Shown: piece after piece, positions 4,771-31,700 of the stretch
Numbering within the stretch: position 1 is the first letter of the stretch
Layout: each line of letters begins with the position of its first letter
Assembly (NCBI RefSeq): GCF_026571515.1
Contig: NW_026859416.1
Span: forward strand, 372,001 to 435,987
Length of the DNA: 63,987 bases
Direction of reading: 5' to 3'
From: Ruditapes philippinarum
Taxonomy: Eukaryota
The notes under the pieces: generated by a model
What the model saw: the letters and a program-made list of their open reading frames with translations, nothing else
What the model was told of the DNA's origin: nothing
The model's database searches: none
Program-made: the position numbers and the translations under genes

Positions 4771-7700
4771 CTGTCAGTCTAAAACATTACGCCTGAATTT
4801 TTAGACTAAATAAAAACGCTAGACAACGACCAAAATATAATTTCAAAAACCTATGTGTGAAAATATGTATTTTTAATGGAAAAAAATAAAACTAAATAAG
4901 ATAGATTCTTTATTGAAAAAAAAAATATTTAAAATAAAAAAACAGAAAATTTAGCAATTTTTTTTCTCTGGAGATAAAAGCTTGTCTGAAACAACAAAAA
5001 AACAACAAAAGAACCCAAACATACTCTTGATTATAGATAAAGAAATTTCGATAAGCAATTAACAGTTAACATACTCTTTTTGCATCCTAAGTTCATCTTT
5101 TTTCTTTTGATTTCGCTGTCTAAGACATCTGATCATAATGATGGTTACCAATAACAGAATGAAGAACCCACATGCAACACCGATTATCATCGCTAGGTTA
5201 ACTGTAAATGACATAATTATCGCCTTTATTTTTATACATAAAAGCCTTTTTATACATTTAATGGCTTATTATCTTTGACCAAACTCACAATTTCATCCAT
5301 ATTCATCTTTCAAATAAGACCTAATTATAACGCTTATATTTAATTCAAATTTGACTAATGATTATGGACTTTTTTACAAATTTGCTTGTACTAATATTCT
5401 ATTATTTTCTCCGATTGAAATCATTATCTATACTCTTACTCAACACGAATCAACAATACATCTTTCCTAAATGATATCTCCCCAATACCATTGTAATGAT
5501 ACACGTCTGATATAAAAAAAAATCTGAAAAATAATACATATTTGTCGTAATCAAATCCCCTTTGTTATAGAACGCGTCTAATAAAATTCATTATACAGTG
5601 CACACTACTTGATTACGTGAAACAGGGTAATCTATTCGTGCTTTAAATACAGTTGGGTTGATTCCAGTTACTTCCCTTGCATTATTAGTTTTAATTGTAT
5701 TTTTAACCAATTAGATGATCGCTTTGAATTTCGCTCCAAATGTGTTTAGTTTGATGATTTTTGCGGGAGTTGAAAAGTATTTTCAATAGAGTATAATTGT
5801 GCTTATGATTTGTTTTATGTGTTTTAAGGATTTGGAATAAGTATTATGGTATATTCTAAAGTTTATTGTTGGGCAATAACTTCTGTATTTCTGTAAACAG
5901 CGTATATTTTTTTGAGAAGTAAATTCATGATTTTCATGTATTTAGAATTGAGTAAAGAATTGAGATGGTTCAGAAATAGCATTCCTTTTTAACTTCACTT
6001 AACTCTTTCTCTCATGCACATTGTTCTTAATAATATGTATTCTTTATTTGATAATTTGCAACACCCAGTCACTGTGTGAATGAAGGGTTAATTTGAGTAA
6101 AATAATTAGATGGTTTGATTCATGTGATTTTATATTGTTGAGAGCATACAATTCCACAAATTGGTAAGTCATCATTATATATTATAATTGCGTATTATGT
6201 GTAAGTTATTGCTGTAACTTTTAAACTGACCATTTATTGTATGTATGTAATGTAACTGTAATATATTTTAATGTAACTTAATATTATTGTTAAGGGTTAA
6301 GATAAGCCACTAGAACCACTTAATAATAAGTATCATATGTGAACTTTTTATCATTATGATTTAATGTGTTTTTAACATTATATATTGTGAATTAAAGGGA
6401 GATAACCATGCAAAGATGAGACATTAATTGAATAGACATTTAGTGACATTTTGTATGGTTTCAGTGTGCTGGACTTGTTAACTAGGTACTCAAGTTGACT
6501 GTGATATTGTAATGTGAAACAAGAGTGCAGGAACAGTGATGTGATATTATAGTTTGAGACATTTTTAACCCTTTCGATGCCAGAGGGTTATTGTTTTATT
6601 GATCACCTATTTGACAGAGGGGGTTTTCTAAGAAATTACTATATTATTAATTAATATATTTATTATTATTTGTTATTAGTATTATAATAATTATATATGT
6701 TTCCAAATCTGTGAGTATAATAATAATTATTGTCAATGGTATAATTTTCTTTATATCTATTATTATTTTTATTATTATTATTATTTATTTATAAATATTA
6801 CTATTATTATTAAAGAAACGGCTAAAGCCGTCCATATGGCAAATACGCCGAAAATAACAGGGAGGGCATAAGCCGTCCCTATGGTAGTGAAAGGGTAAAG
6901 AGTGATACAGTGTTTATTTATATTTATTTGTTTATCAACATAGTAACACAGTGAACTATTAATAAATCTATATGTAAACCAAAGCCTATTTGGATTTGTA
7001 ATCTTTTATTTAGATGTAAAATAACCAAAGGTAACATTTGGTGCCCAACGTGGGACCGGGTGCATAACAAGACTTCGACGACATTTATAGTAAATATTCA
7101 CTTCGAACTATGATCATTTTTCATTAATTAAATACTGGGTCAAATAGTGAAGAACTATATTTACAATCTGTGTTACATTAAACTTTTGTACTATGAATTA
7201 AGTAAACTTAAAGAAGATGAAAGATGAAAAAGATGAAAGAACCTGAGTATACCTTTAAAGACTGAAGTAAGATCTTTAAAGCTTCATTAAAGATTTATAA
7301 TTATTGTCAAACTACATTTATTGTGAAATCAAATACCAAGTTTGACAGTGTCATCAACATATATGTATGAGATAGATCTACTTTACACCTTGCTGTTTTT
7401 AGAGGGAAGTAATTTCAACTGAACATCAGAGGAGGAACATTTTCACTTGTGTAGACAGTCTACACAGGAACCAACAGTGTATCTGACAGTTATTGGTGCA
7501 TGAATTATGTGTGGTTTATAAAGGTGTGGTCTAGTGGCTTGTATCAACTTCGTTGTAAGTAAAAAAATGTAAGTAAAAAGAAATTGTAAACTGGTTCAGA
7601 AATTGCAGTTATCCACAGTGAATATACATATTAATTAAATCACTTAGTTATTCAGTGTAAATAATTGCTGCAATTCCTGACAATCATTTCTATGTGGTTT

Positions 7701-10700
7701 GAAATGCATATGTAAGTCCGAGTGAGGTTCACTTTTGCATGCTTAAATTAATTGGTAATAGTAATCTATTTCACCAAAGTTCTACTGTCTGTATATCCTA
7801 GCACCGCCTCATAGCCTTAACTCCAAATATAGTTAATATTTAACACAAAAAGGCTATTTAAGAACCATCTCAAGTCTGTAAGTTTTTATCAAAAATGTAA
7901 ACAAACATTGACCTAGATTTTGACCTGTTGTTGCATTGAACTGGTGCAAAATAACAGAAGTTATTTACTTTTCTTCGTGATCAATTATTAAAAGAAATAT
8001 TGGTTCTTGTTGTCCTAGTTAATTTCTAGAGGAATAATATTTTCATTTGTCTATTCATTTCCAACCATAAAGGTGGCCTTAAATTGTCTGTTTATTGTTT
8101 ATTTTTTCCTGCCATTTACATGTGTGATTATTTTCATTAAAAGGTCAATGAAAAGTATTTTCCCAAAATCTATACTATAAGATAATTGGTTCTACTGATA
8201 TTGGAATTTCCATGACGTCATTGACTACCTGACTGATATGTGACTGAATCACATGACGTTATAGTTTAGTAACAATTTTAGTACAGGTGTAGTCTATAAT
8301 TAGGATAGTATATACATTATCAGGCTTGTGTGTGCACTGACAATTGTGACACTTTGAGATAAATTGTATACAAAACTAAGTGAAGGACAAATAAATTGAC
8401 AAGTAAGTTTTAAAAATAAATAATGAATTAATGTAAAATTAATACTTAAAAGAAAGTATTTATTTAACAGATATAAATAAATATAAATCAAGAAATAAAA
8501 TATATAGGTACTCCCTGTTAAGTGAAATAATTTTATACTGAATTGTTTGCAAAAATGATTTTGTGGATAATTCTTAAATACTTACATTTATATAATGTTA
8601 AATAAATAACGTTTCGTTAGCGAAAGTAGCTACTTATTCGCGTACACTTATTCGTGATGATAGTTTTTGATTGCTATTATAGAATTTGTAATTTTATATA
8701 GCCAAAAACTTTTCAAAAGCGTTTTCATTGTATGATCATACAAACGTAAACTGAAATTTGGTTGAATAAAATACTTTGACCTAAAACAAATGAACTGGAA
8801 TGAAATATGTGAATCACACTGAAAGTGAACAACGTTATAGCTGAAGTGAAAGGAAATTGAATTTGAAATTGTGAATTGAATTGAATAACGGAAGGGAAAG
8901 TGATTAGTGAAAGTTAGTGCAAAAGTAACTTATCTGAAAGTACAAAGTGAAATATTGAAGTTGACTTTACTTAAATCTACATGAGTGATGTATTTAATCA
9001 GGATATACACTGATTAAGGATTTGAAGAGGTGTTTGTGAAAATAGTTCAATTGTGAATGAACTAACGCAAAAGTGAACTAAGTGAAGTTAACGCAAAAGT
9101 GAATTAAGTGGATAATTTAAAGGAATTGCTTCATGTACGGAATACTTTGTTGCACTGATAAAGGAAGATATTATAAAGATAATTGAAACCATCCGCACAT
9201 TAAGCGTGAATATTTATATCAAAGAGTTAGTGCAATAAAGGTGTAACTGTGGAATTTGAGTTTGGAGAGTACAATACATGTAAATTGAACTTAAATACTT
9301 GAACATTGGAAAGTTGGATAGCTTTGAATGTTGAAGTTAACGCCAGACTGAATTAAATGTGGAGTGAATGAATTGCGTAGAGTGAAAAGCAAACTGAATT
9401 AAGTACTATATGCACAAGATAGTGACATACTGTGTTAAATATATATTCAAAGGAAGTAACAGAATTGTATTTTGAATATACAAACATTCAACGGCATACT
9501 GTATTAAGTGAATACAGATTATAGCTAAAGTGAATACGAGAGTTAGCGGCAAACTGTATTAAGTGACTTTGATTGAATTTACATTGTGAAGTGAAATAAG
9601 AATAGAGGAATTCATTTATGGAAATAGAATGTTGATATGAGATGGAGTTAAAGACTTTGTGAGATGACGGCAAACTGAATTAACTTTGTGAATAGATAGA
9701 AAACAGATAGAAAAATTGGGAATTCACAAAATTGTAGAAAGGAAGGATGTCAAAGATAGTGTTTGATTGGCAAACTTGAACTTGAGGTGGAAAATTGGCA
9801 ATGAAAACACATTGAAATAAAGGTCGGAGGTAAAAGCGATTTACTGAAAGTAGTAATTGTTAAAGGAGACGACTAATGATTAGTTGAAAGAAGTTGAAAT
9901 GAATTATTAGAGACCTTTGGAAAGAGATTTTAATTGGAAAGAGCGAAGAATGAAGTTAGTGAATATCGAATTTAAATGATCATAACCATTTCTTTGTTGA
10001 AGTTTTTTGGAACTTTTAGTGAATAGTGGCCTTTACAGATTGAATTTTGGATTAATTAAGAAAAATGCTATACAAATAATTAACTAAATTCATTATAGGC
10101 AAGTTGATGCCAAACTGAGTCAACTTTATATTAGTGAATAAGACTTCAATTGAAACAAATCAACATTACTTCATTAGTTGAAAAGTTGAAATAGTGTCAG
10201 TTAAATAAATACAGACTTTGAAACTGAACATCTATTATATTCGATATGAGTGAACCATCAGTCAAGAAAGAATAACCTGGGTGCAGAGGCTTTAGGCGGA
10301 GAGAAGAAGATAAGAAAATTCTTGCGAAATTTCATTCATTGAAATTCACGCAAAAGATAGAGTCTACTGAAGACTTGATTTTTTTTTACGAAGGATTACG
10401 GAGACGGAAATGGAGGAAGCAAAGAAAAAACCTTCACCCTTGACACTACCTACTGAAAGTTTAAGTTTAACTTAAACCTCTTCATCAACACCAGCAGCAA
10501 CATCAGCATCTGCTAGTGCAACTATACCTTCACCACTTGTAATGCCAAAAAGCTGGAACAGTTCATTTTCCTAAATTATCGAGCTTTTATGGTGAAGACA
10601 ACAAAGGAGACGCAACATGGGAAACTTTTAAATTTGAGATACAGGCATTATTGGCAGACAATGTATTCTCTGAAGAACAAATATTGTTAGGAATTAGACG

Positions 10701-13700
10701 TGCAGTTAAAATAAACGCTAGCGACAAAGTGCGAAGATTGGGAACAGGAGCTTATGTTCATCAAGTAATACAGAAATTAGACAGTTCATTCGGCACTATT
10801 GAAACAAGAAAGAATATTTTGAGGAAATTCAACAAAAAGTAAATGAGTCTGTAACCTGCTATTCATCTAGACTAGAAGAAATATTCAATTAAGCAGTCAA
10901 TTTAAATGATTTAAAGAAAACAGATGAGGACATTCTTAAACAAGTTTTATACCAAGGCCTTTGACCATATATAAGACATTTATCTGCATATAAATGCGAA
11001 GCCGTAATAGACTATGACAGATTCAAGATTGAATTAAGAAAAATAGAAGCAGATCTAAGTTCGGAAAACGAAAAGACAAAGTCTAATACTGCAGTGAGTT
11101 TTGAAAGAAAAGAAACATCAGAATTGACTGAAGTTAAAGAATCAAGAAAGGATAAGTAGGAAGAAAATTACACGTCAACACCAGGGATGTTTATGATGTT
11201 TTATTATCTACCGGTTTCGACCTACCGTGAGGTCTTCATCAGGATAAATTTTGACAGAAATTTGGGCCTGAAGTATTAAGATTGTGTAGGATGGTAAGTC
11301 ACATGACTGACCAAAATAGTAACAAAAAATCTAAAAATAGAATAAGATTTGGCTCAGTGCCAGAATGTTGTTAAGTCCATGTGTAATAAGTTAAAATATC
11401 ATAGTCTTACAGAGTCCAGTGCTTTCTGATTATTGAAAAGTTCCATAAATACAAATACACAAATAAATTGTTATTTTGTGTCACCATAAGTATTACTATT
11501 TCTATGTTATGCACTTTTTTAATGTAAATATATGTTGGCATCAGTAGTTTTAATGTACAGTCTAGTATTGAGGTTACCATGTACATCCTTAAAATATTTA
11601 ACATAAAAAATGAGCTTCTTTCATGGCTGGCGATTTCATATGTAATTTTGATAAAGGAGTAAAAATCGTTCAAGTGGGCCAAGAAGGAATACAATTCCTC
11701 ACAACGATGTGGCCAAATGGTAAAAATGTCATCAATATATCTGCACCATATGAGTGGTTCTATTTGTTGAGTGGCAAGAATTCTCTCTTCTAAGTACGCC
11801 ATGGATAGAATAGGATAATTCTGGGTATCAAAGGCAATGTGTTCTTCTTCCCACTGTAATTGTGAAGTTGAGCTGATAACTGGTACTTTTGGTATGAATG
11901 ATTTAAGGATGGATTTTGTTCTTATGTACTTTTCCAAGTATAAAATATTATATTGTGTTCGGGTCTTTTGAACATGAAGTTTCTTTGAGAATTTAAATCT
12001 TGAGACTTTCGGTTCGTCAATTTTGCGCTGTTTCTGACCTTCCGTTGTTTGTCTTATCTTCGGATTTAATTTAGGCCTTTCCTGTTCCGGAAGTGTTGCT
12101 ATGGACGTTGTTGCCGAAAGTAAATGTCATTCGGTTTCTGATTGGTCGGATTGTGTGAATGAATATATCTGGTTTCGTTTTCGATGCAATTCCCTTTCCA
12201 AGGGCTCCGATGCTGCATTTTGTGATGGATCCAAAAAAACTGGATACACGGCGGGTGTAAGAATCAATATGCCCCGGCCCACATCACGCATTTGCCTGGA
12301 TGGTTATCCTGGTGAAGACGGATCCCGCTGAAGTTAAAGAAGATGAATGATAGAATTGACAGCATTGAACAGAAACAAGACAGTGGTAGTACACAAATTA
12401 TTATAGAGGATTTTATAGAGGACCAAGACATTATAGAGGCAACAGATATAACAGCTATAGAGGGCGAGGTTCATCTTACAGTAGAGGCAACAACAATATA
12501 AGAAGACCGACTGGTACCAACACGATGCAACCTTTGTGTCATAACTGTAATGGTAGAGGACACAAAGCTAGATATTGCACTTCACAGAGAGTCTGTTTTA
12601 ATTGCAATCAGGCTGGACACTTGGCAAGGAACTGCCTAATAGTATAAGTGCTCCTGTTGTGGGATCTAACATGGGCACCAACAAACATGATCCCTTATTA
12701 GTTAGAAACATCAATAAAGCACAGATTACAATCAATAATGTATCATCAACAACACTCATAGATAGCGGAAGCTGAGTTAGTCTTGGCAGCAAATCATTTT
12801 TATGATGAACATCTTTCACAGATTGAAAATCAGATCACTGAATGAATTACTTTCATATAGCATGTGCCGATGGAAAAATTTTATTATATTTAGGATACAT
12901 AGAAGCAGAATTAAAACAGCGGACTTCCAAAGAATTAACCTCGACTTTGTTTATTTCTTGTTACACCAGATACTGATTATTCATACAAAACGTCTGTCAT
13001 AATTGGTTCAAACATACTGCAAGATTTACTTTAAGAATGCCAGAGCAACTTCGGTGATAAATTTCTTCAAGAAGCAGATCTACACACAACATGGTACTTG
13101 TCATTCAGATGTTTGGTTATTCGAGAAAGAGAATTAAAACGAAACAAAAATAGGTTAGCTGTACTAAGAAGCGCAATGTCAGGAAAGGTTACAATAAGGC
13201 CAAATGAATCTGTTCATATTACATGCTATACTGATAAAGAACTTGAATTTCAACCGACTACAGCATTTATACAAGAATGTGAAGACAGTAGCTTACCATC
13301 CTACTTAGACATTACACCAGCAGTAACACATTATGAACTTGGAAAAAACAAGTCTTTCACAGTCAACTTTTCAAATCTGACAATGAACACTTGTACTATT
13401 TCTCCAAGAGCAATTATCTGTGAGTTACAATCTGTGTCAGTTAATCAAGACGTATTTGATAAAATTGAAGGATATGATTCTATAATAAATGATTTACACC
13501 AAAAAGAAACTCAACAAATTAAAGATGTCCTAAATAAACACAAAGCTATTTTTCTACAGGCGATACTGATATAGGTAGTTGTAATAAAATTCATAATTTT
13601 TTTTTAATTGTCATAAAAATACACATAGGATAGATTTACTAGACGAAACACCTTTCAAACAACGACACAGAAGAATTCCAACAATGATGACAGATGAAAT

Positions 13701-16700
13701 AAGAAGCCACCTGAAACAATTACTCGCAGCGGGAATTATAAGAAAATCAAGGGTACCATGGTGTTCTAATGTAGAATTAGTCGGAAAGAAAAACGGGAAA
13801 TTAAGAATCTGTGTAGATTACAGAATGTTAAACAACAAGAGTGTTAAGGATTCATACGCAATACCTCGGATTGAAGAAGTTTTTGATGTTTTAAAAGGAA
13901 GCAAATATTTCAGTACAATTGATCAAAAGGCAGGATATCACCAAGAAGAAATAGAAGAAACACACAAGGAGAGGACAGCCTTTACTGTAGGATCACTTAG
14001 ATTTTTCAAATATGTTAAAATGCCGTTCGGACTTTCGAATTCGCCAGCCACTTAACAAAGATTGATTGAAGAATGTCTCGGAGACTTAAATATGAAAGTG
14101 TGTATTATATATCTGGATGATTTGATTATTTTCAGCAAAACTTTCGAAGAAAATCTACAAAATCTAGAACTGGTACTAGATAAACTTCAAGAATGTAATC
14201 TCAAATTATCTCCGGAAAAGTGCTTCTTTATTCAACAGAAAGTAAACTTCTTGGGACATGTCGTAAGTGAACAAGGCAATGAGGCTGATCCAACCAAGAT
14301 AGAGAAAATAAAAAAAACTGGCCTACTCCAAAGAATGCTGATGAACTTCGATCTTTTCTAGCATTTGCCTCGTACTACCGTCGTTTCATTAAAGGATTCT
14401 CACAAATTACACGACCACTATCTTAACTTCTTCCGCCAACCTCACCAAAGAATTCCAAAAAGACTACAAAAGAATGGATATGGACAGATAAAGAACAAGA
14501 ATTTTTTTATCAATTTAAAATAACTTTATCGTCTCCACCAATACTTGCATACCCCGATTTTGAGTTACCGTTTGAGCTGCACACAGATGCATCGACGAAA
14601 GCACTTGAAAGTGTACTTTATCAAATTCAAGATAATGTCAAGAGAGTTATCGCCTACGCTAGTCGCTCACTTACAAAATCAGAGAGAAATTACTCTGCAT
14701 TCATGCTTGAATTCCTAGCTCTTAAATGGGCTGTTACAGAAAAGTTTGCTGACTACTTAGCATTGAAAAACTTCACAGGGGTGACAAATAACAATCCTAT
14801 TACACATGTATTGTCATCGGCTTAGCTGGATGCTACAGGTCAACGATGGGCTTCAGCTTTAGGAGAGTTTGATTTCGACATAGTGTATAGACCAGAAGTT
14901 AATAATGCAGACGCTTGGAATGTAACGATATCCATATTAACAGATTGTTCAAGATAATTGAAAGGAAATTATAAAACTTGAAAATAACGTGATAAAACAA
15001 TATGCAGTAGAATAATTCCATCGCCATACTTTGAAACTCTACCAACTAATATAGATATAATTGATGCAACTGAAAATCCAGCCAACCCATGGCACAGATA
15101 GAATTTCGAGAAATCAGATGAAATCAAAGATCCAATGATAGAGAAATGGCGTCGTGCTGTTATTTATAAAAAGCTACCGTATTATGAGAAGGAATTATGA
15201 CAAATTACACTGAAAAAGATGCATTTTATACAAACATGTGGAGAAACACAACATCAATCAATTAATTATACCAAAGTGTTATAGACATAATATACTAGTA
15301 TTATCAGGACTTCATGATAACAAAGGTCATCCGGGTAGAGAAAGAACTCTCGCTTCACTTCGTGAAAGGTTTTATTGGCAAAGAATGTCGATGATGTTGA
15401 TGTCGACATTTGGGTTTCGAAGTGAAACAGATGTCTCCGAATGAAAACAAACACTAACACACGTGCACCATTAATCAATATTGAAACAACACATCCACTT
15501 GAGATGGTCTCCATTTTACAACAATTTTATAGTTCATTATGGAATTCCGACATCTATTCATTCTGATCAAGGAGCAAATTTCCAATCTGAAATCATGAAA
15601 GAACTCTGTAACATCACCAATATGAAAAAGTCAAGAACTTCAGTCTATCACCCAATGGGAAATGGAGTCTGTGAACGATTTAACCGAACGTTACTAGACA
15701 TGTTAGGCACCTTAGAAACATCTCAGAAAACTGATTGGAAGAAACATATACCATCTTTAGTCTATGCCTACAACAGCACACCACATGAAACTACTAAGAT
15801 CTCACCATATGAACTAATGTTTGGCAGAAAAGCAAAATTACCCATTGATTCAGTGTTTGCTCAAGCTACAGAAGAAACAACATCAAAAACACCAACAGAA
15901 TATATAGATGACCTCAAGAATTATATTAGTACAACAAGGCAGATAGTAGAAGAACATACAAAAAGAGCAAAGGAGAAACAAAAGAAATACTTTGATAGAA
16001 AAGCCAAAGCAGGAACAATTTCAGTGGGAGACAAGGTGTTAGTGAAAATATTGAAATATGATGGTAAACATAAGATCGCAGATAAATTTGAAGAAGAGCT
16101 TTTTGATGTCATAGATCAGCCAAGACCAGATATACCAGTGTTCAAGGTTAAGTCAGAACATACTGGTATTATAAAGACATTACACAGGAATCATTTGTAT
16201 CCAGTACAAGAAAACAACATCAGTGGTTCAGAAGAGTTGAAAATGGGAATTGAAAGTGTAAAAGATGTTAATAATAAGGAATACAGACCGGTACCGAAGA
16301 AGAGGATGTCTTCCAACAAAGACACAAAAATAGGAAGTGAAGGACCAAATAAAGGAGAGAGCGAAACAAAAGATAAAAGTAAAGGTGACGTCACAAGAGA
16401 TGAATCAGAGGATTCAGAAGACACAGATTCAGAGGTTGGGAGCAGTTATGTATTTTTTACATGCGGCAATGGGGACGCCCATAATAATCCCAAGAAGAAC
16501 AGTGATGACAATAGTACTATAGAACTGGAACAAAAGAACAACTTAAATGAAGATAGTGACTCTCAAGAAGAAGACCATAGTGATGAGGAGATAGAAGTAG
16601 ATATTGAGGAAGGTATGGCGAGTGTTGAAGCAGACACTTTACCAGAGGAGGAACCAGATGAAGAACCACCAGAAACATTACATCTTGAAATAGAGGAAAC

Positions 16701-19700
16701 AACAGAGGAATTTAAGGATACAAATGACCACAATATTGAACATACAGATATAGACATTGCCGAACCAAGTCATATAGTGGATTCTTATGACAGTGAAAAT
16801 ACTGAAATAAAGGAGATAGAGGTGAAGAATAAACAAAATATACAGAATGAGGAACTAAATACACAAGATGATGAACATAGTACAACGAATACACCCTTCT
16901 TAATATTACCTCATACATAGGTTTCTCAGAACGAGGCTAACAGGGCAAGCTCCAGTATCTGCTCTATGTAAACATATCACGAATATATGGCCGAAAGATT
17001 AAGAGATCTTAATATAGTACTGATAGTACTACATACTTGCTGTATGTTTAACATTACAAAAATCTCTTCTGGAGATAAATAAATCAACAACAAGGTTTAT
17101 TTTACGCTATATACAGTGAAGGATGTACATGTATATTCGAGACCTGTGAAGTGAATTAATGTTTATGATAATTCCAAGTAATTTCTAATATTCCGTGTCA
17201 AGTATAAATATCAGGTTAACTCTTTGCAACTTATACAGTAATTATCTGTGTTATCAGTACTTTATTGCTTACCTAAACACATGTTGGTCAAGAATGTATA
17301 AAGTAATTAACTGATAATAGATCTAAACAGTTGGATGCTGAATTCTGTACCATACTTCCCCTAAATTTAGCCATTGAAATAAAAAAACAAAGCATAAGTT
17401 TTATTCACTTTGTATTTAAAAATAAAAAAATCTGGATGACTGTCTAGTAACTGGTTAACTTTACAGACAGCTTACCAAATCAAAATAACAATTTTGTTAA
17501 GACATGACACCACAACCCTGTCTTAAACTTTTCAATAGATTTTCAATATCTTAACACATGATGTTGTTTACAGCAATGGAAAAATAAATTTCATGCTAAG
17601 TAACGGATGTAAAACTTATATATTATCAACTGTTTTAATTAATTACAGTATTAAATACTTAGTATATAGCAAATTACAATCATTTAATTACAAATATCGG
17701 TCAAAATCTTAAAACGAAACTGAGGTATCATTAGCTTGTTGCACTTGTCCAGTTGGTCCGACTTGATAATGTAGTCATATTGTTGAATCCTGTACTAGCT
17801 GATATACAACAAATCATTTGGGTACACGGCACTTCCAGAAGATGTTGCCTGGACTAGCCAACCCCAGACATTCCATTTTCCATGGACTGAACATTTGCAG
17901 AAAACATGTGCAGGACCTTGCAGTCGGAGGGTATTAGGAAAGACAGCATCTAGATTCAGCACTTCTTTAACATTCCAAGAAATATTCACTCAACAGTATA
18001 TAATGCATAAGAGGACAAAATATTAAATGTTATTACCATGTTGACATAATAACCTGCAGCTGTACCATATATGTAACAAAGCATATGTTAACAAAGTAAT
18101 GTTAAAAACAAAGTAATGCGATGATTTCCTTTTAATTATTTTATTTGAATTAAGACAAAAAATACTAAACAAATGGTCCTTTAAAATATGTTAAAAAACA
18201 TTTTGTCAGCTTGCAACATCTATCTATTTCTATCAGTCAAGCTGTTTGTTTTGCCTGCTTCATAATAAAAGCTCTTAATGTTTTTTGCTGATGTTTTTAA
18301 CATTGAAAACTGTAATGAATATACATATGTTGAAGATCCTTTATAAACAAGATATGCAACTGTTATCATTTAAAATGTGTTTGTATCAAAAGTTCAATAT
18401 CACTGTTTATTTTCTTCCTCAGTTTTCTGTAATTCTTCTTTTAACTGTTTGATAGTTTGATAGTTTCTCTTTCATCTGTTCTGCAACTGCCATGAAGAGG
18501 TATTACAATTAAAGGCGATTCAAATACCTTTTATGTTTTTTTACTGTAGCTAAACTTTATTTATGTGTAAAAATGAAAATAAAGTCTTGAGATCTACCTT
18601 TCATCTGGCAAAATCTTCTTTAGTGTTCATCTTACTGGTCTGTTCATTACTACTTCAGTTGAACCAAGAGGGTTTTTTCTACTTTTCTACTTTTCCTCTT
18701 TTCTTCTACTTATTAAAGTAAGAATCTGTGTGTATCTTATAATTATGAAATCTAAACTTTATATATTTATAAACAGACAATTATTGCGTCTAATCTATTA
18801 AGTCCCTATTCATAAATTTCTCAGATAGAAACTTCTACTCAACGTCCCTTCTTGTTTGTAGGTCGCTAATTTGACTAAGTGACGATAGTAAGGAATCTTC
18901 TTCATATTTTGTAATCAACTAGTATTTACAATTACTTTTCTATCTAAACATCAATATTTCAAACATTTTCAAAACCTGTCATATTTAAAGTAATTAATCT
19001 TATGTCAGGAAAAGGCATTTTATGCTTTCAGATCTGATCCTTTTTCAGCATTGTATTGTGTATGTAAATCTTGTATGTGTAAAATGTTCGAAATAAAATA
19101 TGTTTAAACTAACCAAGAGGGTACATCTATTCTCTTCAGACATATATGAATTTGTGTCCATGATTGTTCATCTTTTTTGTGTGAATTGCTTCAAAACGAG
19201 CAAAATTGTCTTGTCATATATTGATCTGAAATGGTATACAAAATAAACTGTAATAATTGCTTTTCAGTATAAAAACGGTATTGATTTAGATTATTCATAA
19301 CTGTGATATTTAAATGAAATTTATAAACAGGACATTGTATTATATGTTAATAATTAAATGAAACATTTAAAACAATGAAACATCAGATTAATTAATGTAA
19401 GTAGTAATACATCTAAAGTAGCTTAGTTTAAAAAAGAAAAGAACAATGGAATTTTACCTCAAAATGTTCTCATTCATCCCATCTTATTTTCACAATCCCT
19501 TTCTTTATTTAACTCACATCATTACGTATTTTATGAAAATTAACCGTATAATCATATTTAGAATTGGTATAACAGAGTGGAACACAACAATAAAAATGAT
19601 ATTTTCCCCGGTAAGTTTAACAAACTTGGGAACACACTTTGGCTTATCAGGTCAGACATTATTTGTTTACATTCATGCCCTGTTAGCCTCTCTCTGGTGA

Positions 19701-22700
19701 TGGAATGTAAAGTATGCAAATAATTTGAGAAAGGCCTATGATCAACAGAATACACATATTGAAACTGAAGAAAGACAAGGAACTGAAAGGAACTGAGAGG
19801 ACACCCTTCTGCCTAAACCTACTCCTAGAAAGTCTAAAAGAGAGAGAAGACAACCAAAATTGTTTGACTCCTATCAAATGAACCGGATGGTGGCATTGAG
19901 ACCGTATGACTAAGCTTCATGATTTAAACGTACTTGTGACATCACTCAATGATTCTGAACATAAAGCTGTAGAGGCGATCATTAAAACGATTTTGAAATG
20001 TTATGTCGAAATACGAATTGTGCATTGAAATGAAATGTACAAATAAAAATCAAATGTCGTTATTTAAGGCATACATGTGTCTATGTTTTATGATTTCTGA
20101 AAATACATAGAATTGCAAGGTTGCAATTTTGAGAGAGGGGAGAAAATAATGTATTTTTAACCAGTTTTAAATTAAATCACAAAATTAATTGTTAAATAAG
20201 TAAAATTTGATGATTAATTTAATAGTTTAAAGTTTTAAGTCATTTAATAATACTAAATAAATTAAATGATGTGTACAATTCAGGTCTAAAATCAAAATAA
20301 AAGAATGATTTAATGTTATATGGAGTAAGCTATTACTTGTGGATAAGAGCCACCAGTAAAAGTTGTGTGTCAGTTGTATGGTGCAACATAAGGCTTGAAA
20401 TAGGGTAGAAAGGAGTAGAGATAAACTATGTATTGTTATGTAGTTGATTTTTGTACGAGACACAGTTATTGACTTATGACTAAGACGGACCTGATTGAAT
20501 GACGAGACGTCATTTTCCAAGGAGGGGAAGTGTGTAACAGGGTCATCTTTTCGTGCTTTAAATACAGTTGGGTTGATTCCAGTTACTTCCCTTGGATTAT
20601 TATTTTTAATTGTATTTTTAACCAATCAGATGATCGCTTTGTATTTCCCTCCAAATGTGTTTAGTTTGATGATTTTTGCGGGAGTTGAGAAGTATTTTCA
20701 ATAGAGAATAATTGTGCATATGATTTGTTTTATGTGTTCTAAGGATTTGGAATAAGTATTATGGTATATTTTAAAGTTTATTGTTGGGCAATAACTTCTG
20801 TATTTCTGTAAACAGCGTATATTTATTTGAGAATTAAATTCATTATTTTCATGTATTTAGAAATGAGTAAAGAATTGAGATGGTTCAGAAATAGCATTCC
20901 TTTTTAACTTCACCATGCACATTGTTTTTATTATAATAATATGCATTCTTTATTTGATAATTTGCAGCACCCAGTCACTGTGTGAATGAAGTGTTGATTG
21001 GAGTAAAGTAATGAGATGGTTTGATTCATGTGTTTTGCTTTTGTTGAGAGCATACAATTTCAAAAATTTGTTAGTCATCATTATATATTATAATTGCGTA
21101 TTATGTGTAAGTTATTGCTGTAACTTTTAAACTGACCATTTATTGTATGTATGTAATGTAACTGTAATATATTTTAATGTAACTTAATATTATTGTTAAG
21201 GGTTAAGATAAGCCACTAGAACCACTTAATAATAAGTATCATATGTAAACTTTTGATCATTATGATTTTATGTGTTTTTAACATTATATATTGTGAATTA
21301 GAGGGAGAAAACCCTGCAAAGATGAGACATTAAGTGAATAGACATTTAGTGACATTTTGTATGATTTCAGTGTGCTGAACTTGTTAACTAGTTACTCTAG
21401 TTGACTGTGATTACTGTAATGTGAAACAGAGTGCAGGAACAGTTTGAGACATTTTTAAGAGTGATACACTGCTTATTTATATTTATTTGTTTATCATCAT
21501 AATAACACAGTGAACTAATAATAAATCTATATGTGAACCCAAGCCTATTTGGATTTGTAATCTTTTATTTAGATGCAAAATAATCAAAGGTAATCTATGT
21601 AATTACCATAAAATCAAACCACAATATAAAATGTAATTATAACTACATGTATACAGTCGACACATGTTATAACGTTATTTCCTATACTTTCATACCCAGT
21701 GTTACATTCTATAGTTGCACTGCTGCCAAATTCAGTTCCACCGTTATCAACTTTTTCCCCATTGTCTGGTGTTGGATCACTACAATCTATCAAAGTGTTA
21801 TGGATTGGATAACAAATATGATTAGTATATTAATATAATCATGAATATTAACATGTACATAAATGCTTCTTGAAAGTGATTATGATTTTATCTTTAATAA
21901 TACTCATAATATACCTTGTTTTTGGCAGGAGACTCTACTAGTCCATCCTTCTAACGTGCAGACAACCATGGATGCTCCTTCTAATGTATAACCTTCGTTA
22001 CATGTCACATAAGCCGAAGATCCAACTGTTGTACCTGATGCATTTATTTTGCCATTTGGTGCTGACAATAAACCACAATCTGAAGACAGAAAAAAAATGT
22101 TAATTAATAAAAAACATTGACGCCGCAAATAAAAATGTCCAGCTATATTCACAAATGCAACAACATAATCGTAATTTGTTTAATATGTTCATTATAAATA
22201 ACAGTTATTTGTTACATTTTTCTTAATACTTATATCAATAAGCGACATACAAAAATACGTTTTCCTATTTTTTGTAGTATACGTAGAAAACAAAATCAAA
22301 ATTGAAATTATGTTGAACAATCTTTAAGGAGTATAACCATAATTTTTGTTGATCTCTTACGGCCTACACAAGCCGCAACTAGCGATAAGTTTTGTGAAAA
22401 GAAGAACAAAAAATGAGCTCTAAAGAATGCCGACATCGTCAAAATTTGAATTATTGAATTGTTTGTGCATAAACTGTAGTGTAAAGTAACCTCTTTATGT
22501 ATTAAGCAGGATTTAACTAGCTTCTAAAACGATCTGAAATATTTGTCAAATCCAAAAAATGTTGCTATATATCTCTTTTTTACCAGGCTTTCGGCATTAA
22601 AAAATCGAATTCATATTATTATACACCATTGATATCTGAGGGTGCAAAAAGCGACAATGTCCGAAATACGGCGTTTAGACATCGCCGATAATCTTTGTTA

Positions 22701-25700
22701 TCGCCCTTTCTAAGAAACGGACAGTTGTCAATGTAAACAAATGAAAATGAAAACAAGACAACTCGAAATAGATATAAGAAAATGTTGTTTCATTGTTGTT
22801 TTTATCGATAAATACTCTACATTTTGGTGATAATTACATTTAGACATAATGCCAGTTTTTATGTTCAACGGCGGTTTATGCGACTGATGATTAGAATATG
22901 CGAACGATCTGACCTTTTCCTATCGTCAATCTATAATCATTTTTAGAATTTCTGAGGGTCATGTATTGTCTTGAGTTTATAAATCTTCAATGTGAAGCTT
23001 TGCTGATTGTGATCAATAAAATTTTGTCATTTAAACTTTAAAACAATTTTGGCAAGTAACCACAGTTCATTTAACGTCAGCACCCATCTAGAAAGTCACT
23101 GAGTGTTGATAACGTCATTCTGTACGTGGGCTAATTCACTCACCCATTATGAAAAATAATGCCTAGTAGCAAAGTGGCTTAAATTGCAAAATGACCTAGA
23201 TGTTGCAAATACCCTAGATTGTGTTTCTATATATAGTTACAGGTATTTATGTACGATAGTTTAAAACGGGCATCATTGCCATAACAAATGGATACCATTT
23301 GGTGTTCAACTGTTCTAAAGCAGAAGTATTTCTTAAGTTAACAATTAACTACTCTTTTAGCGATTGTTTTGCAATTAAAGTTATCTTTCTTGTTTATAAT
23401 GGATATCTCTTTTTCAAAGTAAACTGAACAAAAGACATAAGCCTTCTAGTACATCGCTTTAAATAGTTCATAATTTTAAAGCTGAAAAAGAACATTCTTG
23501 TTTTACTCTTACACAACTAATCTATCACCATTGGAATCAGTCACGAAAAATAGAGGATACTGAATGAGTGTAGTTTGATACTAAAGTTATTGAACGAGTC
23601 GGATAAAATCATATTATGTGAGCCTCTGGCGAACAAAATATTGTTTTATTCAACGAGTTTGATAAATTTAGTATTGAATCTACACGGATATAATATTGTT
23701 TTTATCACATATATAAAATAAGAACGGTAAACTGTTAAAAAGAGTAATTTTTCATTGACGCGCCTATAGTGTAACGCTAACATTAGCGCTCTTTAACGCT
23801 ATGTTTATATATAGAACAAATGACGTCACGTCAAAGTGTTCTTACACTAGTGTAATATCGATTTTATTAAATGGCTTTATTACACTCCTGCGCCGCAGTT
23901 TATGTGATTAAATGTATAATAATAATGATTTTTATAAACATGGTCATTTTGTTCTTACCAGAAGCGTTACAAACTGGGTTATCACTCCAAGTCTCGTCAG
24001 CTTGACATATGATTGTTGAATTTCCTGCGATGTTTAATCCATGATCGCATGTTATTAATACTACTGAGTCGTATATTGTGTCGGTGGAATTTCTGTTACC
24101 GTTATTAGGTGTTGGGTCACCACAATCTGAAAATCAATGATAACAAAGTAATTTATTGAGACAAGGCGGGCTTTTTTTATATTGAAAAGGAGATAAAACG
24201 TCTTTAACACAATTTGACATAATTTTAAAAACAGGTTGATATTAATGTAGATAGTAAAAAAAGGCATTTACCTATAATATTACACGGGGGCCATGCCTCC
24301 CATGTGCCTCCCATGTGCCATTTGCTAAACAAGTCACAGGCGTGCTACCATCTGGTCTGTAGCCTATATTACAGCTGATGACAGCTATCTCCTCGTAAGT
24401 TGTTTTGTTCTCTGAGAGTGTGACTTTTGCATTAACGATGGAGGGCATTCCACAGTATTTAAATGAGAAAAAATGGTTTGTATAACTATTCATCCGAAAT
24501 AAAATTTAATACAGCGCTGCTGAAAGGTTTAATATTTAGAATACTTTTACTAAACCGGGACACGACAGCTTTAAAATATGTTCAAGTCCCATGTGTTAGC
24601 CCGTTTATACAAGAAAGTTGAACATGCAAGATAACGTCTAAACTTTCTAAATTCGGCGAGCAATATAGTCTAAATAACAACATATTTACGTGATAAAAGA
24701 GAATCTAGGGTTGTCTTGAAGCATAAATGCAAAATACCTATTAACGTGCAAGACGGTACATCGGTCCAGTTGTTATTAAGCTGGCAAGTTATTACTGCAT
24801 CTCCAAGAAGCAAATACCCATCATTACAAGAAACTTTAACAACAGTTCCATAGCTTGTTTCAGACGAATTGATGTTCCCGTTTACTGGTGTTGGATCTCC
24901 ACAATCTGATGAGAAGACATATTTCAAATGTAAGTAATGTATGTGTTATTTTATTTGACAAATATCATGACAATACTTTTTAAAGAAATTTGAATTGAAA
25001 TGTTACATGAGTACTTTACGATTAAGAAAAAGTAAACATAAAGCCATCACTGAGATAGCACAATAAAATCAATAGCGATGTGGTTTTTGCTTAACATTAA
25101 TAATCTTACAAAATTGAGGTGGAAAGAACGTACCAGTACAAACGACCGAAACATCATTGGAATGATCGCAATTATCATAGGTAACGTATGTACAGTTATT
25201 CAAATGTGAAGCGGTTGGAAGACAATTGAGATCATCAATAAAGATCGGACCTTTCCCTTCTCCAAAATAAGCTCCAGAATAAACTTCAAATGCAGGTCTA
25301 TATAATACAAATTGATGATCATTACAATTAAAGTCTGCTACTTTAAGACCAAATGACATATTTATGCTTGTTGTTTTATTTTCATAATCTATAAGACATT
25401 CACCTCATTATGAACATTAAACTAGTTTCTTCACAATGTCTTAATATGTTTGACTAAGTAACCACTTTTTGAAAATCTACAGATTACGATTTAGCAATAA
25501 ACATTTGGATCTACACAGTCCAAAAATAAACAGGAGAACTTGTTTTGCTTAGATTTGTTATGCTTATATGTATATTTTTATTGCATTATATAATTGTGTG
25601 TTGAAAACACTTACGCATAACCAATCATCCGACAAACTGCATCAGCTTCTTCTTTTCCGAAATAATTATCACAAACGGTTCCCCATGTGTCCATTACCTT

Positions 25701-28700
25701 AAGTTCAACTCGACCATTACTTGCCTTAGTCCCACCAGTTAATCGAATAGCCATTATATCCAAAGGAAATTCTTAAAAAGATGTAGGGACAGTTATTTAG
25801 TGAATAAGAACATCTCATTTTTTATACTACGTTGTCCTCGGTATGGTCTCATGATATCACAATTTCCTGCACAGCTCACAATTATAATCAATGATAACAA
25901 CGAAAATGAAATTGAAATTTTGTGACAATGATTTGTACAGTTGATTCTTATCTTGTCCATATGTCTTACTTCATTTTTATTTATTTATTTATTTATTTGG
26001 TTTGGTTTTAAGTCACAAATACATTTTTGCAAATTCCCGGCTTTTGTGGTGCAAGAAGACCCTCTATCGACCTTCATGGCTTCCTCATATTTAGAAATCA
26101 TCCAAAGTCCATTGCGGGATAAGAATCTGAATAGTGAGATGGAAGTTGTTCCAAGTCCCGTAACCCCTTAGTCTAGTTTATGTATTTACATTGATTAGCT
26201 GTAAATGTAAACTATGCACCACATCATAATATATATTGCACACTATTGTATCACTTACTGTATTCCTTACATTCACCTTCTGTCACCCAGGATTTTGTTA
26301 CGTTATCACATGTCATTTTAAGCGTTCCAATGTATGTTTTGAAGTAAGAACAATCAGCGTAAAATTTTGTTCCATTGTAGCTAAAGAAACCAGCATCCCA
26401 ATAATTTATGTCCGGTTGCCCACACTCTGTAGGAATGAGATAATCAAATTGAGATATAAATTTTAGAGATGTCATAGAAAGTATTTTTGTAATGATTCCA
26501 TTGGAGTGTTAACAGTATAGATTGTATCAAAAAAGAATTTCTGACTAAGTGTAATGGATAGTAATTCGAATTATAGTGCAATTGATATAGAAATAAAATT
26601 TTGAAACAGTGCTATTAATGGACAATAGAATTGTTTTATTTCCGATTCTAAGATCGTTTCGTACGACACGACTGTTGTGTTTGTGGTACTTTTTGTTTTT
26701 ACTTTTTGGCATTTTTCTTATTGGGTCCTACATGAATAATGTTGAACCACCCTTAGGATATGTTGCCTGCTTTTTAAATTTGTCTTTTGACGTCATGTCT
26801 GTGAAATGTAGGACATGTTGCTTCTTCTGATATCAACCCATATTTTGGTACGACAATTATACTTCACTTTTTTTTTCTTCCAGTTAATTTATGTTTTATT
26901 TTGAAACTAAGGTGAAGATGGTTTAAAAATGATAATATATGGGACTTGTGTTGTTAAAGTCTCATGGAAAGTTTCGTACTCTTTAAACTTCCTTTTAACT
27001 TGATTTATATCAGTAAAATCTTGATACATTTCTCTTAAGTAGTCATTGACAAATATTTATTAGCATACACATTTCTTTAAAAAGGCAAAAATTGCCACTC
27101 ATGATCTGCTTAATATTTATTTTATTTATTTAACTGTATTTGTACTAGAAGAGATTATGTCATTTTAAATTTGATATGTGGAACATTTTATCTAAATCAA
27201 CCACTTGTTGATGAATACCTACTTTTGCCTGAGCACAATGATACTTAAAGCTTATATAAAAATGTCAAAATACTGTTATAAAGGGACATATAACAAATAG
27301 TTTGATATTTCATCTAAAGGACTATAAAACCTTTAAAAATACAATATTTAATGAGATGCCACAATAAATGTGAAATACAAAACTTTGGTCGAAAACTAAC
27401 AGAATGTTTGTTAAAGATTAAGAAAATATATTATGCACAACATTATATTGCAGTTTGATGTATCTGTTTAATACTTTATCTTAATGGTAACAGAAACATT
27501 AAATAGAAATGCTCAAAATGGGTAATATCCATAATGTCAATTGCTTCAGCAATTTAACAACGCTATACAAAACTTTAATAAACATTGGACACGAATATTT
27601 AACTTAGCCACGATTAGTTCCAGTGACAATATATGAAATTACCATGAATTAAGCTTGTATAGGAAGGTTCTATTTTATCAAAAGGTTGTTAATTCAGACC
27701 CATTAGAATAGAGAAATGTAATCTATAGAGAACGCCCGAACGGCTTAATTTAAGATGTTTAAAGCTCTGTTGCTTGAGCCTGTTTATGAACGGTACTGGT
27801 ATTGTCAAGCTAATGTCCACGTCCACTAGCATCTGCTTAAGCAGAATTCATCATTTAAACATGAAAATGATTATATTTGAATTTAGAAGCATCTCCAGAT
27901 GTGGATCCTTTATTGTGACACGTTCGTTTTCTATGAAAAACGGCATATATTTCCAAAGTAAAAGAATGCGTGTACCCTAAACGAGAAAACACTGGGCGGG
28001 TCTAACAATATTGAATTTTAAAGGAAATCAGGAAAGTCTTCGAATCAAAGACAAGACGTCAAGAGATAAATTTTTAAAATAAACATATCCAATGGGTGAT
28101 TATACATAATTCAGGTAGGAATACTAGAACCACCTAACTAGAAAAATGCAACCTAGAAACTTAAAACATCACAAATATGCAATAACAACATTAATGCCGT
28201 GCTGACTGATCTTCAATAATTATAAAACCCTATTTATTTATGTATTTATCTATTTATTCATTTATGATTTTTTTGACATTCTTAATCTCAAAACGAAAAG
28301 CACATATAGCTTAGCCATCTTTTGCTTCTTCAGAACAATGAAATGATTAAGTAGTTTGAATGAAACTGATAGAAGCATTATTTATCCCCTTCCATGTAGC
28401 GGAAAGGGGATTAAAGGAATGGCCTCGGTCTGTCACTCATCCGTCTGGTTGTCTGTCCTTTTCGTCCGTCCGTCTGACTGTCCGTAACACTCTCGTGTCC
28501 GCTCTATAACTTTTAAACCAATGAAATTGTTTTGAAATAACTTGGCACAAATCATCACCATAATGAGATGATGTGCAGAGCGCAAAAATTGGGTTTCTAT
28601 CCCCAAGGTCAAGGTCAAACTTAAAGGTCAAATGTTAAAGTGTCTTTAATTCATAATAAAAGTCTACATTTCGTGTCCGCTCCATAACTTTTAAACTGCT

Positions 28701-31700
28701 GATTTTTTTTAAATAACTTGGCACAAGTGATCACCATAATGAGACAATGTACAGAGCGTAATAATTTGGTTGCTTCCCAAAATGAAGGTCACACTCACAG
28801 GTCAAATGTTAGAAAGTCTACATTTCGAGTCTGTCCATATTATAAAAACTGCTGCCATGTTTCAAAGATATCATGGCAGAAATAATCACTATTATTACTA
28901 CATTGGCAGTGCACAATTATCAAGACACAACCCTAAAGGTCAGGGTCTCACTCAAAGGTCCAATGTAAAAAACATCTATTTTTCAAGGCAACTCTATAAC
29001 TTATTGACAATTCAATGGTTATTATCACCACCACCATGACACAATCTGCAGAGTTCAACGTCCGGGTTGCTACCCCTAAGGTCAAGGTTATATGTTTTTT
29101 TTTTACTTTTTAAAGATATTTTATAACCTGGCACAACTAATCACCATCATGAGACTATGCGCTTATGATATGCATGAAATAATATTAAGATCAAGGCTGG
29201 TAAAATGTCAAAAAGTACACATTTATGTACTGCGAAAGGGGATATAGCTGTCCTTCAGACTGCCTTGTTTTAAAGTAAAACAAAATTATCATATTCAAAG
29301 GTTTAATCTCTTCATATCTCACATGATTAAATGATGTTTGTTTTTTCTTTGGAATATTTGTATAATAATTAATTATTTCTAAAGCTTTATGTCCTTATAA
29401 CGTACTTTGCTTGAGTTTTGCTATTTTTGTGCTCAAATGTGACACTTCTTAAAAGAAACTATTTTAAATTTATTCGTCAGCAATTAACAATTATTGTTCA
29501 AACAATTGATAAAAGCTCAAAAACGAGTAATTAATTTTCATTTTCAAAAACAGCCTCTTTACCGGAGTAAATATCACTGCAAATAAGTACATACCATTAC
29601 AGACAACAGACACGTCTCTATCGTGCTTGCAGATGTTTCGAAACAAATATCTACAGTCACTCAGGTTGGTATCGATACTACTGCAAAAGAATTCGTCAAC
29701 ATACACAGGACCTGTTCCTTCGCCGTGTGATGCACCGGTGAAATAGTGTGCGCCCCTAAAATTCCAGTAGTACAGGTTTTATATTTTTCGCTTTCTCAGG
29801 ACTGTGGTAATTTATATTTACAATTAAGAAACCCAAACACATTTCAATGCCTTAAAAAAGTTATTTCTCATAATGCAAAATTAAATGTTGTTCCTGTTTT
29901 ATATGTGTATCTTTTTCAATAAAATTACACAAGACTAAAGTTTTATTTTTTTAATAAAAGAAATATACAATGATATAAGTGAAACTCAATCTTCTATTTA
30001 AATATTATTGAATTACATTCTTTTATTTAATAAAAGAATATCCAATGGCAAAATATGTCAATTTTAGACACGCAATTATACTTTAGAAATTAAACTTCTT
30101 AACTCTTAAAATGATAACTTTAATTCCGTTTAGTAGTACAACACAAAAATAATATCGAACTAAGAAAGTATCTTTTGCAACGACAGTTAAAAAGCAAAAC
30201 AAATATTTACTTCAGACCAAGCATGTTGCAAAATGTATCGGCATCATTTATGTTAAAGTTAATGTCACAGATAGTACCCCATGTGTCATTGACCTTGATT
30301 TCAGCTCGTCCGTCAAACGGTTCTGTGCCATTGGCCAGTCGAACATCAGTAATATTTAGTTTTGGACCTTTATTGGAACGTAATTTTATAAACTCGTATG
30401 TCATCGTTTTGAAAATTTTAGAAGTACTTTAAGAGATACTAATAGTACAAACATATGGTGGCTGATTTGTGCCATTCGTGATTTCTCCCTGCGACCCCGC
30501 CAAACGAAAATTCCAGAATAACCAACTTAAAATGGCCGGGCGCGGGACGAAAACACGGTTATAATCGAGGGTGCGGGTGATGCTTAATATAGAGGATATT
30601 TGTTTGTTTTGCATGTAAGATTGAAATATAATTTCACTGAGTGAACACCAGACGCAATATTTTCACGAGTGGCGTAGCCACGAGTGAAAATATAATAGCT
30701 GGTGTTCACGAATGAAATATATTTCAATCTTATATGTAAAACAAATAAATTTTCATTTTATTTCATGCTTTTTAAGTGATTTTAAGGACATGGTTTAATA
30801 AATAAAACTCCACCTCGCGTCTCAGCTACTTAGCTTATTAGCGTGTTTCGCCCTGCAAACCCGCTTAGCGAAAAGTCGAGAGTTAATAAATTATCGTTGC
30901 GGAGCGCGGAGCAAAAACACGCTAATTAGCGGGGGCTCGGGCGAAGTTTAATAAATGAAACATCGCTCCTCGGGATCGCGGAACAATATTTAATAAATAA
31001 AACGGCGGGGCGTGCGTGGAGCGAAAACACGCGTATATGCGGGGTCGCGGAGCAAAGTTTAATAAATAAAACTTCGCGTGCATCCAAGCTTATTAGCTTG
31101 TTTTTCGCATCGCGACTCTACCAAGCGAACATTCTAGAATTCACAAGTCAAAATAGCGGGGCGCAGGATGAAAACACGCTAATTAGCGGGGTCGCGATTA
31201 AATAAATAAAACGTCGCCCCGCTAGGGAGAGCGAGATTAAGAATTAAAAAAGCGGGGCGCGAAGCGAAAACACGAATGGCACAAAACAGCCATCATACAA
31301 ACAGTTTAAAAATAGAAAGAATGGTATTACAAATTTACTTAACCCTTTTACTTAAAAATATCATTACGTTTCAAAACAATGTCTTCTTTTTATATTTGAA
31401 TATTTAAAAAAAGTAAAAAGATCTTTAACTCAGCAAAAGGTTTGAAATGCCTATGGTTGTCGTTATTTGTTTCGGACTGTATTCAAATGTCTTCTTGGAA
31501 GATATAGCAACTCTATGATTATAATTAACCGTATCAAATCAGGAAAAGTAATTGAGTTTTCCTCTTATCATAGCACATCACGGACACATCGTTTCTATGT
31601 TGGCATGTATGTTCCGTAACATACTGGCACTCATTTATATGTTCTTGCCCAAAATAACAATTTAATTCGTCAATGTAAACTGGTCCGCTACCCTCACCAT

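Follow-up and report, generated by a model that had tools for sequence, protein, structure and literature searches.

A doubly deleted, non-autonomous Penelope-like family in Ruditapes philippinarum and a candidate RNA signal within its reverse transcriptase remnant

The short element carried by a decayed Gypsy-type retrotransposon in the window, i.e., the whole 63,987-nt stretch of Ruditapes philippinarum DNA analysed here, is a copy of a doubly deleted, non-autonomous Penelope-like element (PLE) family, as judged from sequence comparison and designated family A. The explanation preferred, with a probability of roughly 0.6, is that this family is copied in trans by the reverse transcriptase (RT)-endonuclease of a Neptune-type parent, and that the small island of RT-coding sequence it has kept carries an RNA signal needed for copying. 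Little is settled about how PLEs select and replicate their RNA, with a single in vitro system, an unsettled role for the hammerhead ribozyme and terminal repeats that had been regarded as sufficient in cis, and the repeated, independent retention of one 40-nt RT piece suggests that another signal exists. What makes the locus valuable is the candidate RT-internal signal exposed by the deleted "mini" elements, the ribozyme being of an already known kind. The features of the locus are collected in Table 1.

Table 1. Features of the insert and its surroundings (window positions; a dot marks features without strand)
Feature	Positions	Strand	Remark
Predicted transmembrane exon, host receptor gene	5075-5201	-	Canonical splice sites
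Host Gypsy-type LTR retrotransposon, decayed	5617-21595	+	LTRs at ~5617-7036 and 20532-21595, 93% alike
Target-site duplication, left copy, 14 bp	11128-11141	.	Exact
Mini-Penelope copy, family A	11142-12327	-	1186 nt, equal to one 1216-nt unit minus the 30-nt tail of tandem copies
pLTR-derived 3' segment	11142-11502	-	Fixed 3' end of the family is 11142
AAUAAA	11200-11205	-	Overlaps 3' arm of stem I
Minimal type-I hammerhead	11204-11247	-	Predicted cut between 11209 and 11208
Retained RT island	11520-11828	-	About aa 385-483 of the L052 RT ORF; YIDD at 11739-11728
Candidate cis-acting RNA motif	11677-11714	-	Inner hairpin plus outer helix, GGCC ... AGGAAU-UGU-AUUCCU ... GGCC
Remnant of the parents' ORF1, broken here	11829-12168	-	From parent comparison
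Structured 5' leader, clade-wide	12192-12327	-	Window copy begins within the loop of the leader's first hairpin
Target-site duplication, right copy, 14 bp	12328-12341	.	Exact
SRCR and sushi exons, host receptor gene	21662-40067	-	Link to transmembrane exon inferred

The preliminary description of the locus placed an exact 14-bp target duplication around the element, and this is indeed present; it cannot be extended on either side and occurs only these two times in the window. Comparison with the parents revealed that the insert consists of three parts joined by deletions. The ORF had been described as a patchwork of an N-terminal piece, a YIDD-bearing RT core and a short C-terminal bit, of which the YIDD piece between the deletions stands, while the supposed C-terminal bit belongs to the pLTR region, into which the end of a third, separate ORF extends in the parents. 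The 239-aa stop-to-stop frame exists only in the window copy and lacks a start codon, most copies having a stop at codon 246; Pfam returned no match to this frame, and no coding capacity for RT or endonuclease is left in the family A insert. The 5' leader has 31 predicted pairs, 11 of which are accompanied by compensatory changes on both sides among eight sequences.

Searching the genome assembly (G000) with the insert gave 52 matches, the full-length ones being 91-97% alike. Each deletion junction was crossed in 13 of 15 loci checked, corresponding for either junction to 12 distinct loci with the window included. The assembly contains indel noise, and two loci were left out of these counts: L008 is a noisy duplicate of L012, and L059, a candidate old subfamily at 72% identity, was ruled out as such and turned out to be a noisy duplicate of L010. 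Target duplications of 8-16 bp, whose lengths partly reflect microhomology, flank 16 of 18 family A loci and differ between distinct loci. The genome-wide copy search that had been proposed thus returned common junctions with different target duplications, supporting the earlier suggestion that the deleted form was itself mobilised in trans.

The 3' ends of family A are fixed and its 5' ends are variable. Five loci are partial tandems in which the same 30-nt tail joins successive units, defining the unit of 1216 nt, and each of them carries two hammerheads one unit apart, whereas the window copy has one. No tail was detected at the 3' end of the copies, all five exact tail matches being internal to tandems, and eight measured copies span 1085 to 1908 nt, or about 0.9-1.6 units. 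At the first deletion junction, older copies retain bases nearer to those of the parent. The nearest long relatives are decayed or truncated, with about 85% identity in the RT island and 78-88% in the pLTR, and no intact parent of family A was found among the relatives in G000, while other families of the clade possess long open RT-endonuclease frames. An origin of the deletions by splicing was considered and rejected, as the parental sequence at the A and B junctions shows short microhomology instead of GT...AG ends.

Several further mini families were uncovered by a search with the insert's protein (153 matches, 80 neighbourhoods examined), in which minis were separated by their ribozyme sequence. 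Family B comprises five loci with a 1222-nt unit and has L055/L060 as its parent; family C, also of five loci, derives from L052/L068 and is 94-97% alike to its tandem full-length parent; the parent of family D is L127. Overall, B, C and D are 88-97% alike to their own parents, and their breakpoints differ, the retained RT intervals in the amino acid numbering of L052 being 385-483 for A, 331-476 for B, 390-494 for C and 385-478/488 for D. As the protein query was biased to RT-bearing copies, a second search was carried out with ORF1 alone, in which all 56 candidates were scored. The resulting 44 matches consist of 10 full-length elements, 3 unclassified ones, 1 duplicate and 30 deleted copies (10 of A, 4 of B, 3 of C, 8 of D, 3 of a family H, a single older copy termed I and one unique deletion). 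Family H (L228, L227 and L224) features a complete ORF1, an RT remnant of 38-54 nt that equals the motif discussed below and, ahead of the pLTR, unrelated sequence of about 600 nt; no parent was found for it. All the multi-copy minis, A, B, C, D and H, have preserved the structured 5' leader together with the pLTR and one island of RT-coding sequence. By these comparisons, B, C, D and H arose separately from other parents in the same Neptune-type clade.

The parents resemble Neptune-type elements in their RT with a C-terminal GIY-YIG endonuclease, the CX2-5CxxC linker, the pLTR hammerhead, partial tandems and the 30-nt tail, all of which are shared with the EN+ PLEs described by Craig et al. 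2021 (PMC8557442, in its available part). RVT_1 and GIY-YIG were identified by Pfam in L052 and L063, and the linker ahead of the endonuclease was recognised in the translations. A protein record assigned to the clam Ruditapes philippinarum is identical to the RT of L063, and relatives of the clade occur in other bivalves. Unlike the canonical Neptune-type element, which has a single ORF according to the same source, several parent families have three, namely ORF1, RT-endonuclease and a C2H2 ORF3, and the window element differs further in being a non-autonomous derivative. Additional ORFs are mentioned for some Penelope-like elements in the accessible text of PMC5408684, and the non-autonomous Chlamys elements, as far as PMC8557442 presents them, work similarly to family A.

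In the full-length parents L052, L063, L053, L114, L126 and L127, ORF1 has no Pfam match and ORF3 is a C2H2 zinc-finger ORF; a homologue search with ORF3 and an atlas search with ORF1 yielded no informative match. The RT ORF starts at a conserved MP(N/R)RRFR adjoining the ORF1 stop, the start of ORF3 is no more than a few bases away from the RT stop, and one family has an overlapping TAATG. This adjacency of stops and starts suggests, on sequence grounds, a coupling by termination and reinitiation.

The RT islands of the mini families intersect in only about 40 nt (11714-11677), shortly after YIDD, where a GGCC, the predicted hairpin AGGAAU-UGU-AUUCCU and a second GGCC occur clade-wide. In an approximate simulation with randomly placed islands, for which an interior of 3 kb was assumed, an overlap of 35 nt arose in 0.5% of the trials for A-D and in 0.0015% when I and H were included. 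The hairpin is kept in 28 of the 30 deleted copies from the ORF1-based search, the two exceptions (on C9997 and C4288) being single loci, which indicates that one round of copying is possible with the motif lost. The copy on C9997 (L229) is a single-copy deletion of family B with ORF1 fused to the RT thumb, in which endonuclease and ORF3 are kept and the motif is absent.

Conservation of the motif exceeds that of its surroundings. Among nine parent families, a degeneracy-corrected scan of synonymous constraint ranked the motif best of 585 windows, a result reached anywhere in 22 of 5000 permutations and at the fixed window in none of 5000; the uncorrected scan also placed it first but without significance (208 of 2000 permutations). 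With one mini taken per family, identity between mini and parent amounts to 166/168 in the motif versus 1065/1154 in the rest of the island (Fisher p=3e-4), and in one of the ten minis compared, the B copy L067, the motif is less conserved than the rest. These data make it likely, as far as sequence can tell, that the motif is a cis-acting RNA signal required for copying. The pattern gave 0 matches in metagenome contigs and was present in 0 of 30 loci from other Penelope clades. Neither an RT-internal RNA signal nor convergent tripartite minis had been reported in the freely accessible full texts searched.

Alternatively, the folded motif RNA could have steered template jumps during reverse transcription, without any later need for it in copying. 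The breakpoints of two single copies fit this idea, since L010 ends at the left arm of the motif and L144 right past the hairpin, fused exactly to the hammerhead cut site. However, the breakpoints of A-D are separated from the motif by tens to hundreds of bases, and the motif has been better conserved than the remaining island since the minis arose, which argues for selection, so that template jumping is regarded as improbable.

It is equally improbable that the motif acts as DNA (an internal promoter, an enhancer or a factor site) or as a signal for splicing or export instead of a site bound by the element's protein, a reading suggested by conservation that lies mainly in primary sequence with little covariation, and by weak folding energy (z-scores of -1.75 to +0.59 in nine sequences). 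The pairing itself argues the other way, for one compensatory pair and two G-U changes preserve the hairpin, and the position of the second GGCC differs by one codon among families, its pairing with the first GGCC being predicted in most folds nonetheless. In total, 97.6% of the hairpin cells are paired compared with 40-63% in slid controls; 31 of 500 shuffles reach this percentage, and the hairpin is mismatched in families G and H.

The minis might also have been kept for a fused peptide of ORF1 and RT core, as the reading frame continues across the first junction in A, B and D. This notion deserves hardly any credence: the family A island contains shared frameshifts and a shared stop, and the out-of-frame junction in C together with the RT remnant of under 60 nt in H all but excludes a peptide function.

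The preferred reading of a trans-copied family with an RT-borne RNA signal could operate as follows. Transcribed partial-tandem loci, with two hammerheads one unit apart and a leader behind a pLTR, would serve as the source copies, and the parent's protein would bind the leader and the RT hairpin. Reverse transcription would start internally at the pLTR end, as it does in vitro for the anole element, with insertion at AT-rich nicks, and the copied length would fall slightly short of one unit or exceed it. Cutting by the two ribozymes would depend on dimer formation or on assistance by protein, and dimer cleavage and RNA circles may occur. Against this reading stand the search for an intact parent of A or H, which found none, the weak hairpin and the two loci on C9997 and C4288 without the motif. 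Two published conclusions are also to be set beside it: in a rotifer, the pLTRs were judged to be enough in cis by themselves (PMC3846280, in the part available), and the anole element needed just the pLTR-ORF junction in vitro (PMC11167929, likewise). Poseidon_Ac, studied in vitro by Frangieh et al. 2024 (PMC11167929), resembles the present families in its fixed internal 3' end by the tail, structured RNA after the pLTR and AT-rich targets; unlike here, the pLTR-ORF junction sufficed and no RT-internal signal is reported in the available text.

A wider reading stands at about even odds. The clade would hide a cis-acting RNA in the coding sequence of the RT active site, which selection has mapped five or six times, and successful minis would consist of leader, RT hairpin and hammerhead pLTR, these modules defining the Penelope RNP, possibly via a dimer-cleaved circle. 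If this holds, the minis would amount to minimal substrates supplied by nature. The motif offers exact small mutational targets, and matched pairs of parent and mini are at hand, as in family C.

The ribozyme itself is, by its sequence features, a genuine one of the ordinary Penelope pLTR type. As first described, the minus strand contains a complete minimal core with 5-bp stems I and II and an ACCGGU palindrome: stem I UUAUC is followed by CUGAUGA with an extra A, stem II GACCU/AGGUC with a 6-nt loop, GAAA, the palindrome and the GAUAA arm. The core CUGANGA ... GAAA ... UH with stems I and II is thus present, as are the extra base at 9/10.1, G10.1-C11.1 and the palindromic helix-III segment. 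The motif occurs once in the window and in none of 100 shuffled windows, and 32 sites within one mismatch (23 of them exact) were found in G000, compared with 0 in the control. In comparison with nine long relatives, 364 of 387 positions of the ribozyme are conserved, with the flanking upstream pLTR about 79-88% alike, stems I and II covary between families, and the helix-III segment is palindromic in all 13 motifs listed.

The Rfam check that had been proposed did not recover a hammerhead at E<=10, six related loci gave no hammerhead match at E<=1, and no other Rfam family was found; the Rfam models may perhaps not cover the form lacking helix III. The hammerhead call accordingly relies on the sequence pattern, together with the covariation seen from family to family. 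The minimal metazoan PLE hammerheads of Cervera and De la Pena 2014 (PMC4209133) are likewise of type I and located in the pLTR, with the extra base at 9/10.1, G10.1-C11.1, a short stem I and a palindrome for helix III, and the accessible text reveals no substantial difference from the ribozyme in the window. Loop III has 2 nt, making closure impossible in the monomer, and according to the same text one minimal motif gave no cleavage in vitro and dimers low cleavage. The earlier view of a Penelope-type minimal hammerhead that would need a dimer is supported, and a lone ribozyme is likely inactive. For the anole element, PMC11167929 describes, in its available part, a ribozyme that required protein and whose cleavage was dispensable for insertion.

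In a strict retrozyme cycle, which would be compatible with the preferred explanation, dimer cleavage would free a 1216-nt RNA that is circularised and then copied through more than a single turn. In keeping with such a cycle are copy lengths of about 0.9-1.6 units, in which the tail junction is exact, and two ribozymes at each tandem locus, as is L144, a 190-nt insertion (L144:2743-2931, on C12516) flanked by a 13-bp duplication, whose RT hairpin is fused exactly to the first base past the hammerhead cut; this junction is possibly the single trace of cleavage in vivo. Conversely, the cut site is the start of just 1 locus among 60 (30 of 36 matches examined in each of two families), the anole element needed no cleavage (PMC11167929, in the part available), and the head-to-tail joint of the RNA reads also appears in DNA runs, so that the RNA joint is no evidence of a circle. 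A strict cycle is hence a minority possibility, unlikely on present data.

The suggestion that the insert resembles "a retrozyme or non-autonomous PLE" is supported for the second term. For the first, the joint shared with DNA gives no evidence of circles, and a unit of 1216 nt with ORF remnants and the minimal ribozyme depart from the retrozyme definition. Animal non-LTR retrozymes (PMC7229834; bioRxiv 10.64898/2026.07.22.740005, both as available) are also non-autonomous, bear type-I hammerheads, are pLTR-related and form partial tandems. As characterised in the accessible text of PMC7229834, they are about 300 nt, non-coding and equipped with a canonical ribozyme, in contrast to minis of 1.0-1.2 kb with ORF remnants, a minimal ribozyme and no long arrays. 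R2 SIDEs (PMC6765202, in its available part) are similar in being internally deleted, ribozyme-bearing, non-autonomous and copied by the parent's protein; the minis differ from them by a Penelope parent, two deletions instead of ORF loss and an RT island kept in five multi-copy families.

The host Gypsy retains RT, RNase H and integrase, and the mini-element sits in its gag, upstream of the zinc knuckles. Empty gag joints were found in three DNA runs when presence or absence of the insertion was inspected, but these come from diverged Gypsy copies. At 7039-7056 (+), after the 5' LTR, lies a sequence like a primer-binding site, possibly of the lysine-tRNA type, and degenerate direct repeats of 22-28 nt occupy 8900-10130 of the Gypsy leader. 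In two RNA runs, reads connect a GTAAGT donor within the leader with a TTGCAG acceptor within the LTR (7554 to 20968, +). The joint likely stems from a spliced transcript of the Gypsy family without any of gag-pol; it could also be read as a back-splice into the 5' LTR.

The ribozyme lies between minus-strand receptor exons and is thus likely intronic and in the sense orientation, which had led to the proposal that it could cut that intron. Apart from the shared strand with the SRCR, sushi and transmembrane exons around it and the intact core, little speaks for such cutting or for an effect on the gene. Cutting is considered very doubtful, as the window holds a single motif without a partner, a monomer is unable to close a loop III of 2 nt, and a lone minimal motif was not cleaved in vitro (PMC4209133, in the part available). 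No pile of RNA ends at 11209/11208, for which a search had been advised, was seen in four raw-read runs (4-12% read, with low and mostly unstranded depth, hence a low-power test), and finer placement of reads from one RNA run gave no end pile either. Host exon-exon splice joints across the region were absent from four RNA runs, which showed background depth on both strands. Intron cutting is thus unsupported at this depth. With one ribozyme and without the upstream pLTR and tail, the window copy is likely a dead end that cuts host pre-mRNA rarely if ever, and its ribozyme is likely of small consequence for the host.

The last sushi exon before the Gypsy element (21662-21787, -) ends two-thirds through its domain, 65 nt from the LTR, and the rest of the domain was not found; this copy of the host gene may be damaged. 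Elsewhere in the window, thrombospondin and EGF-like exons of a second gene lie on the opposite strand (50235-52840, +), and retrotransposon-like fragments without a Pfam match, possibly related to a Bel/Pao retrotransposon, are located at 61516-62888 (+).
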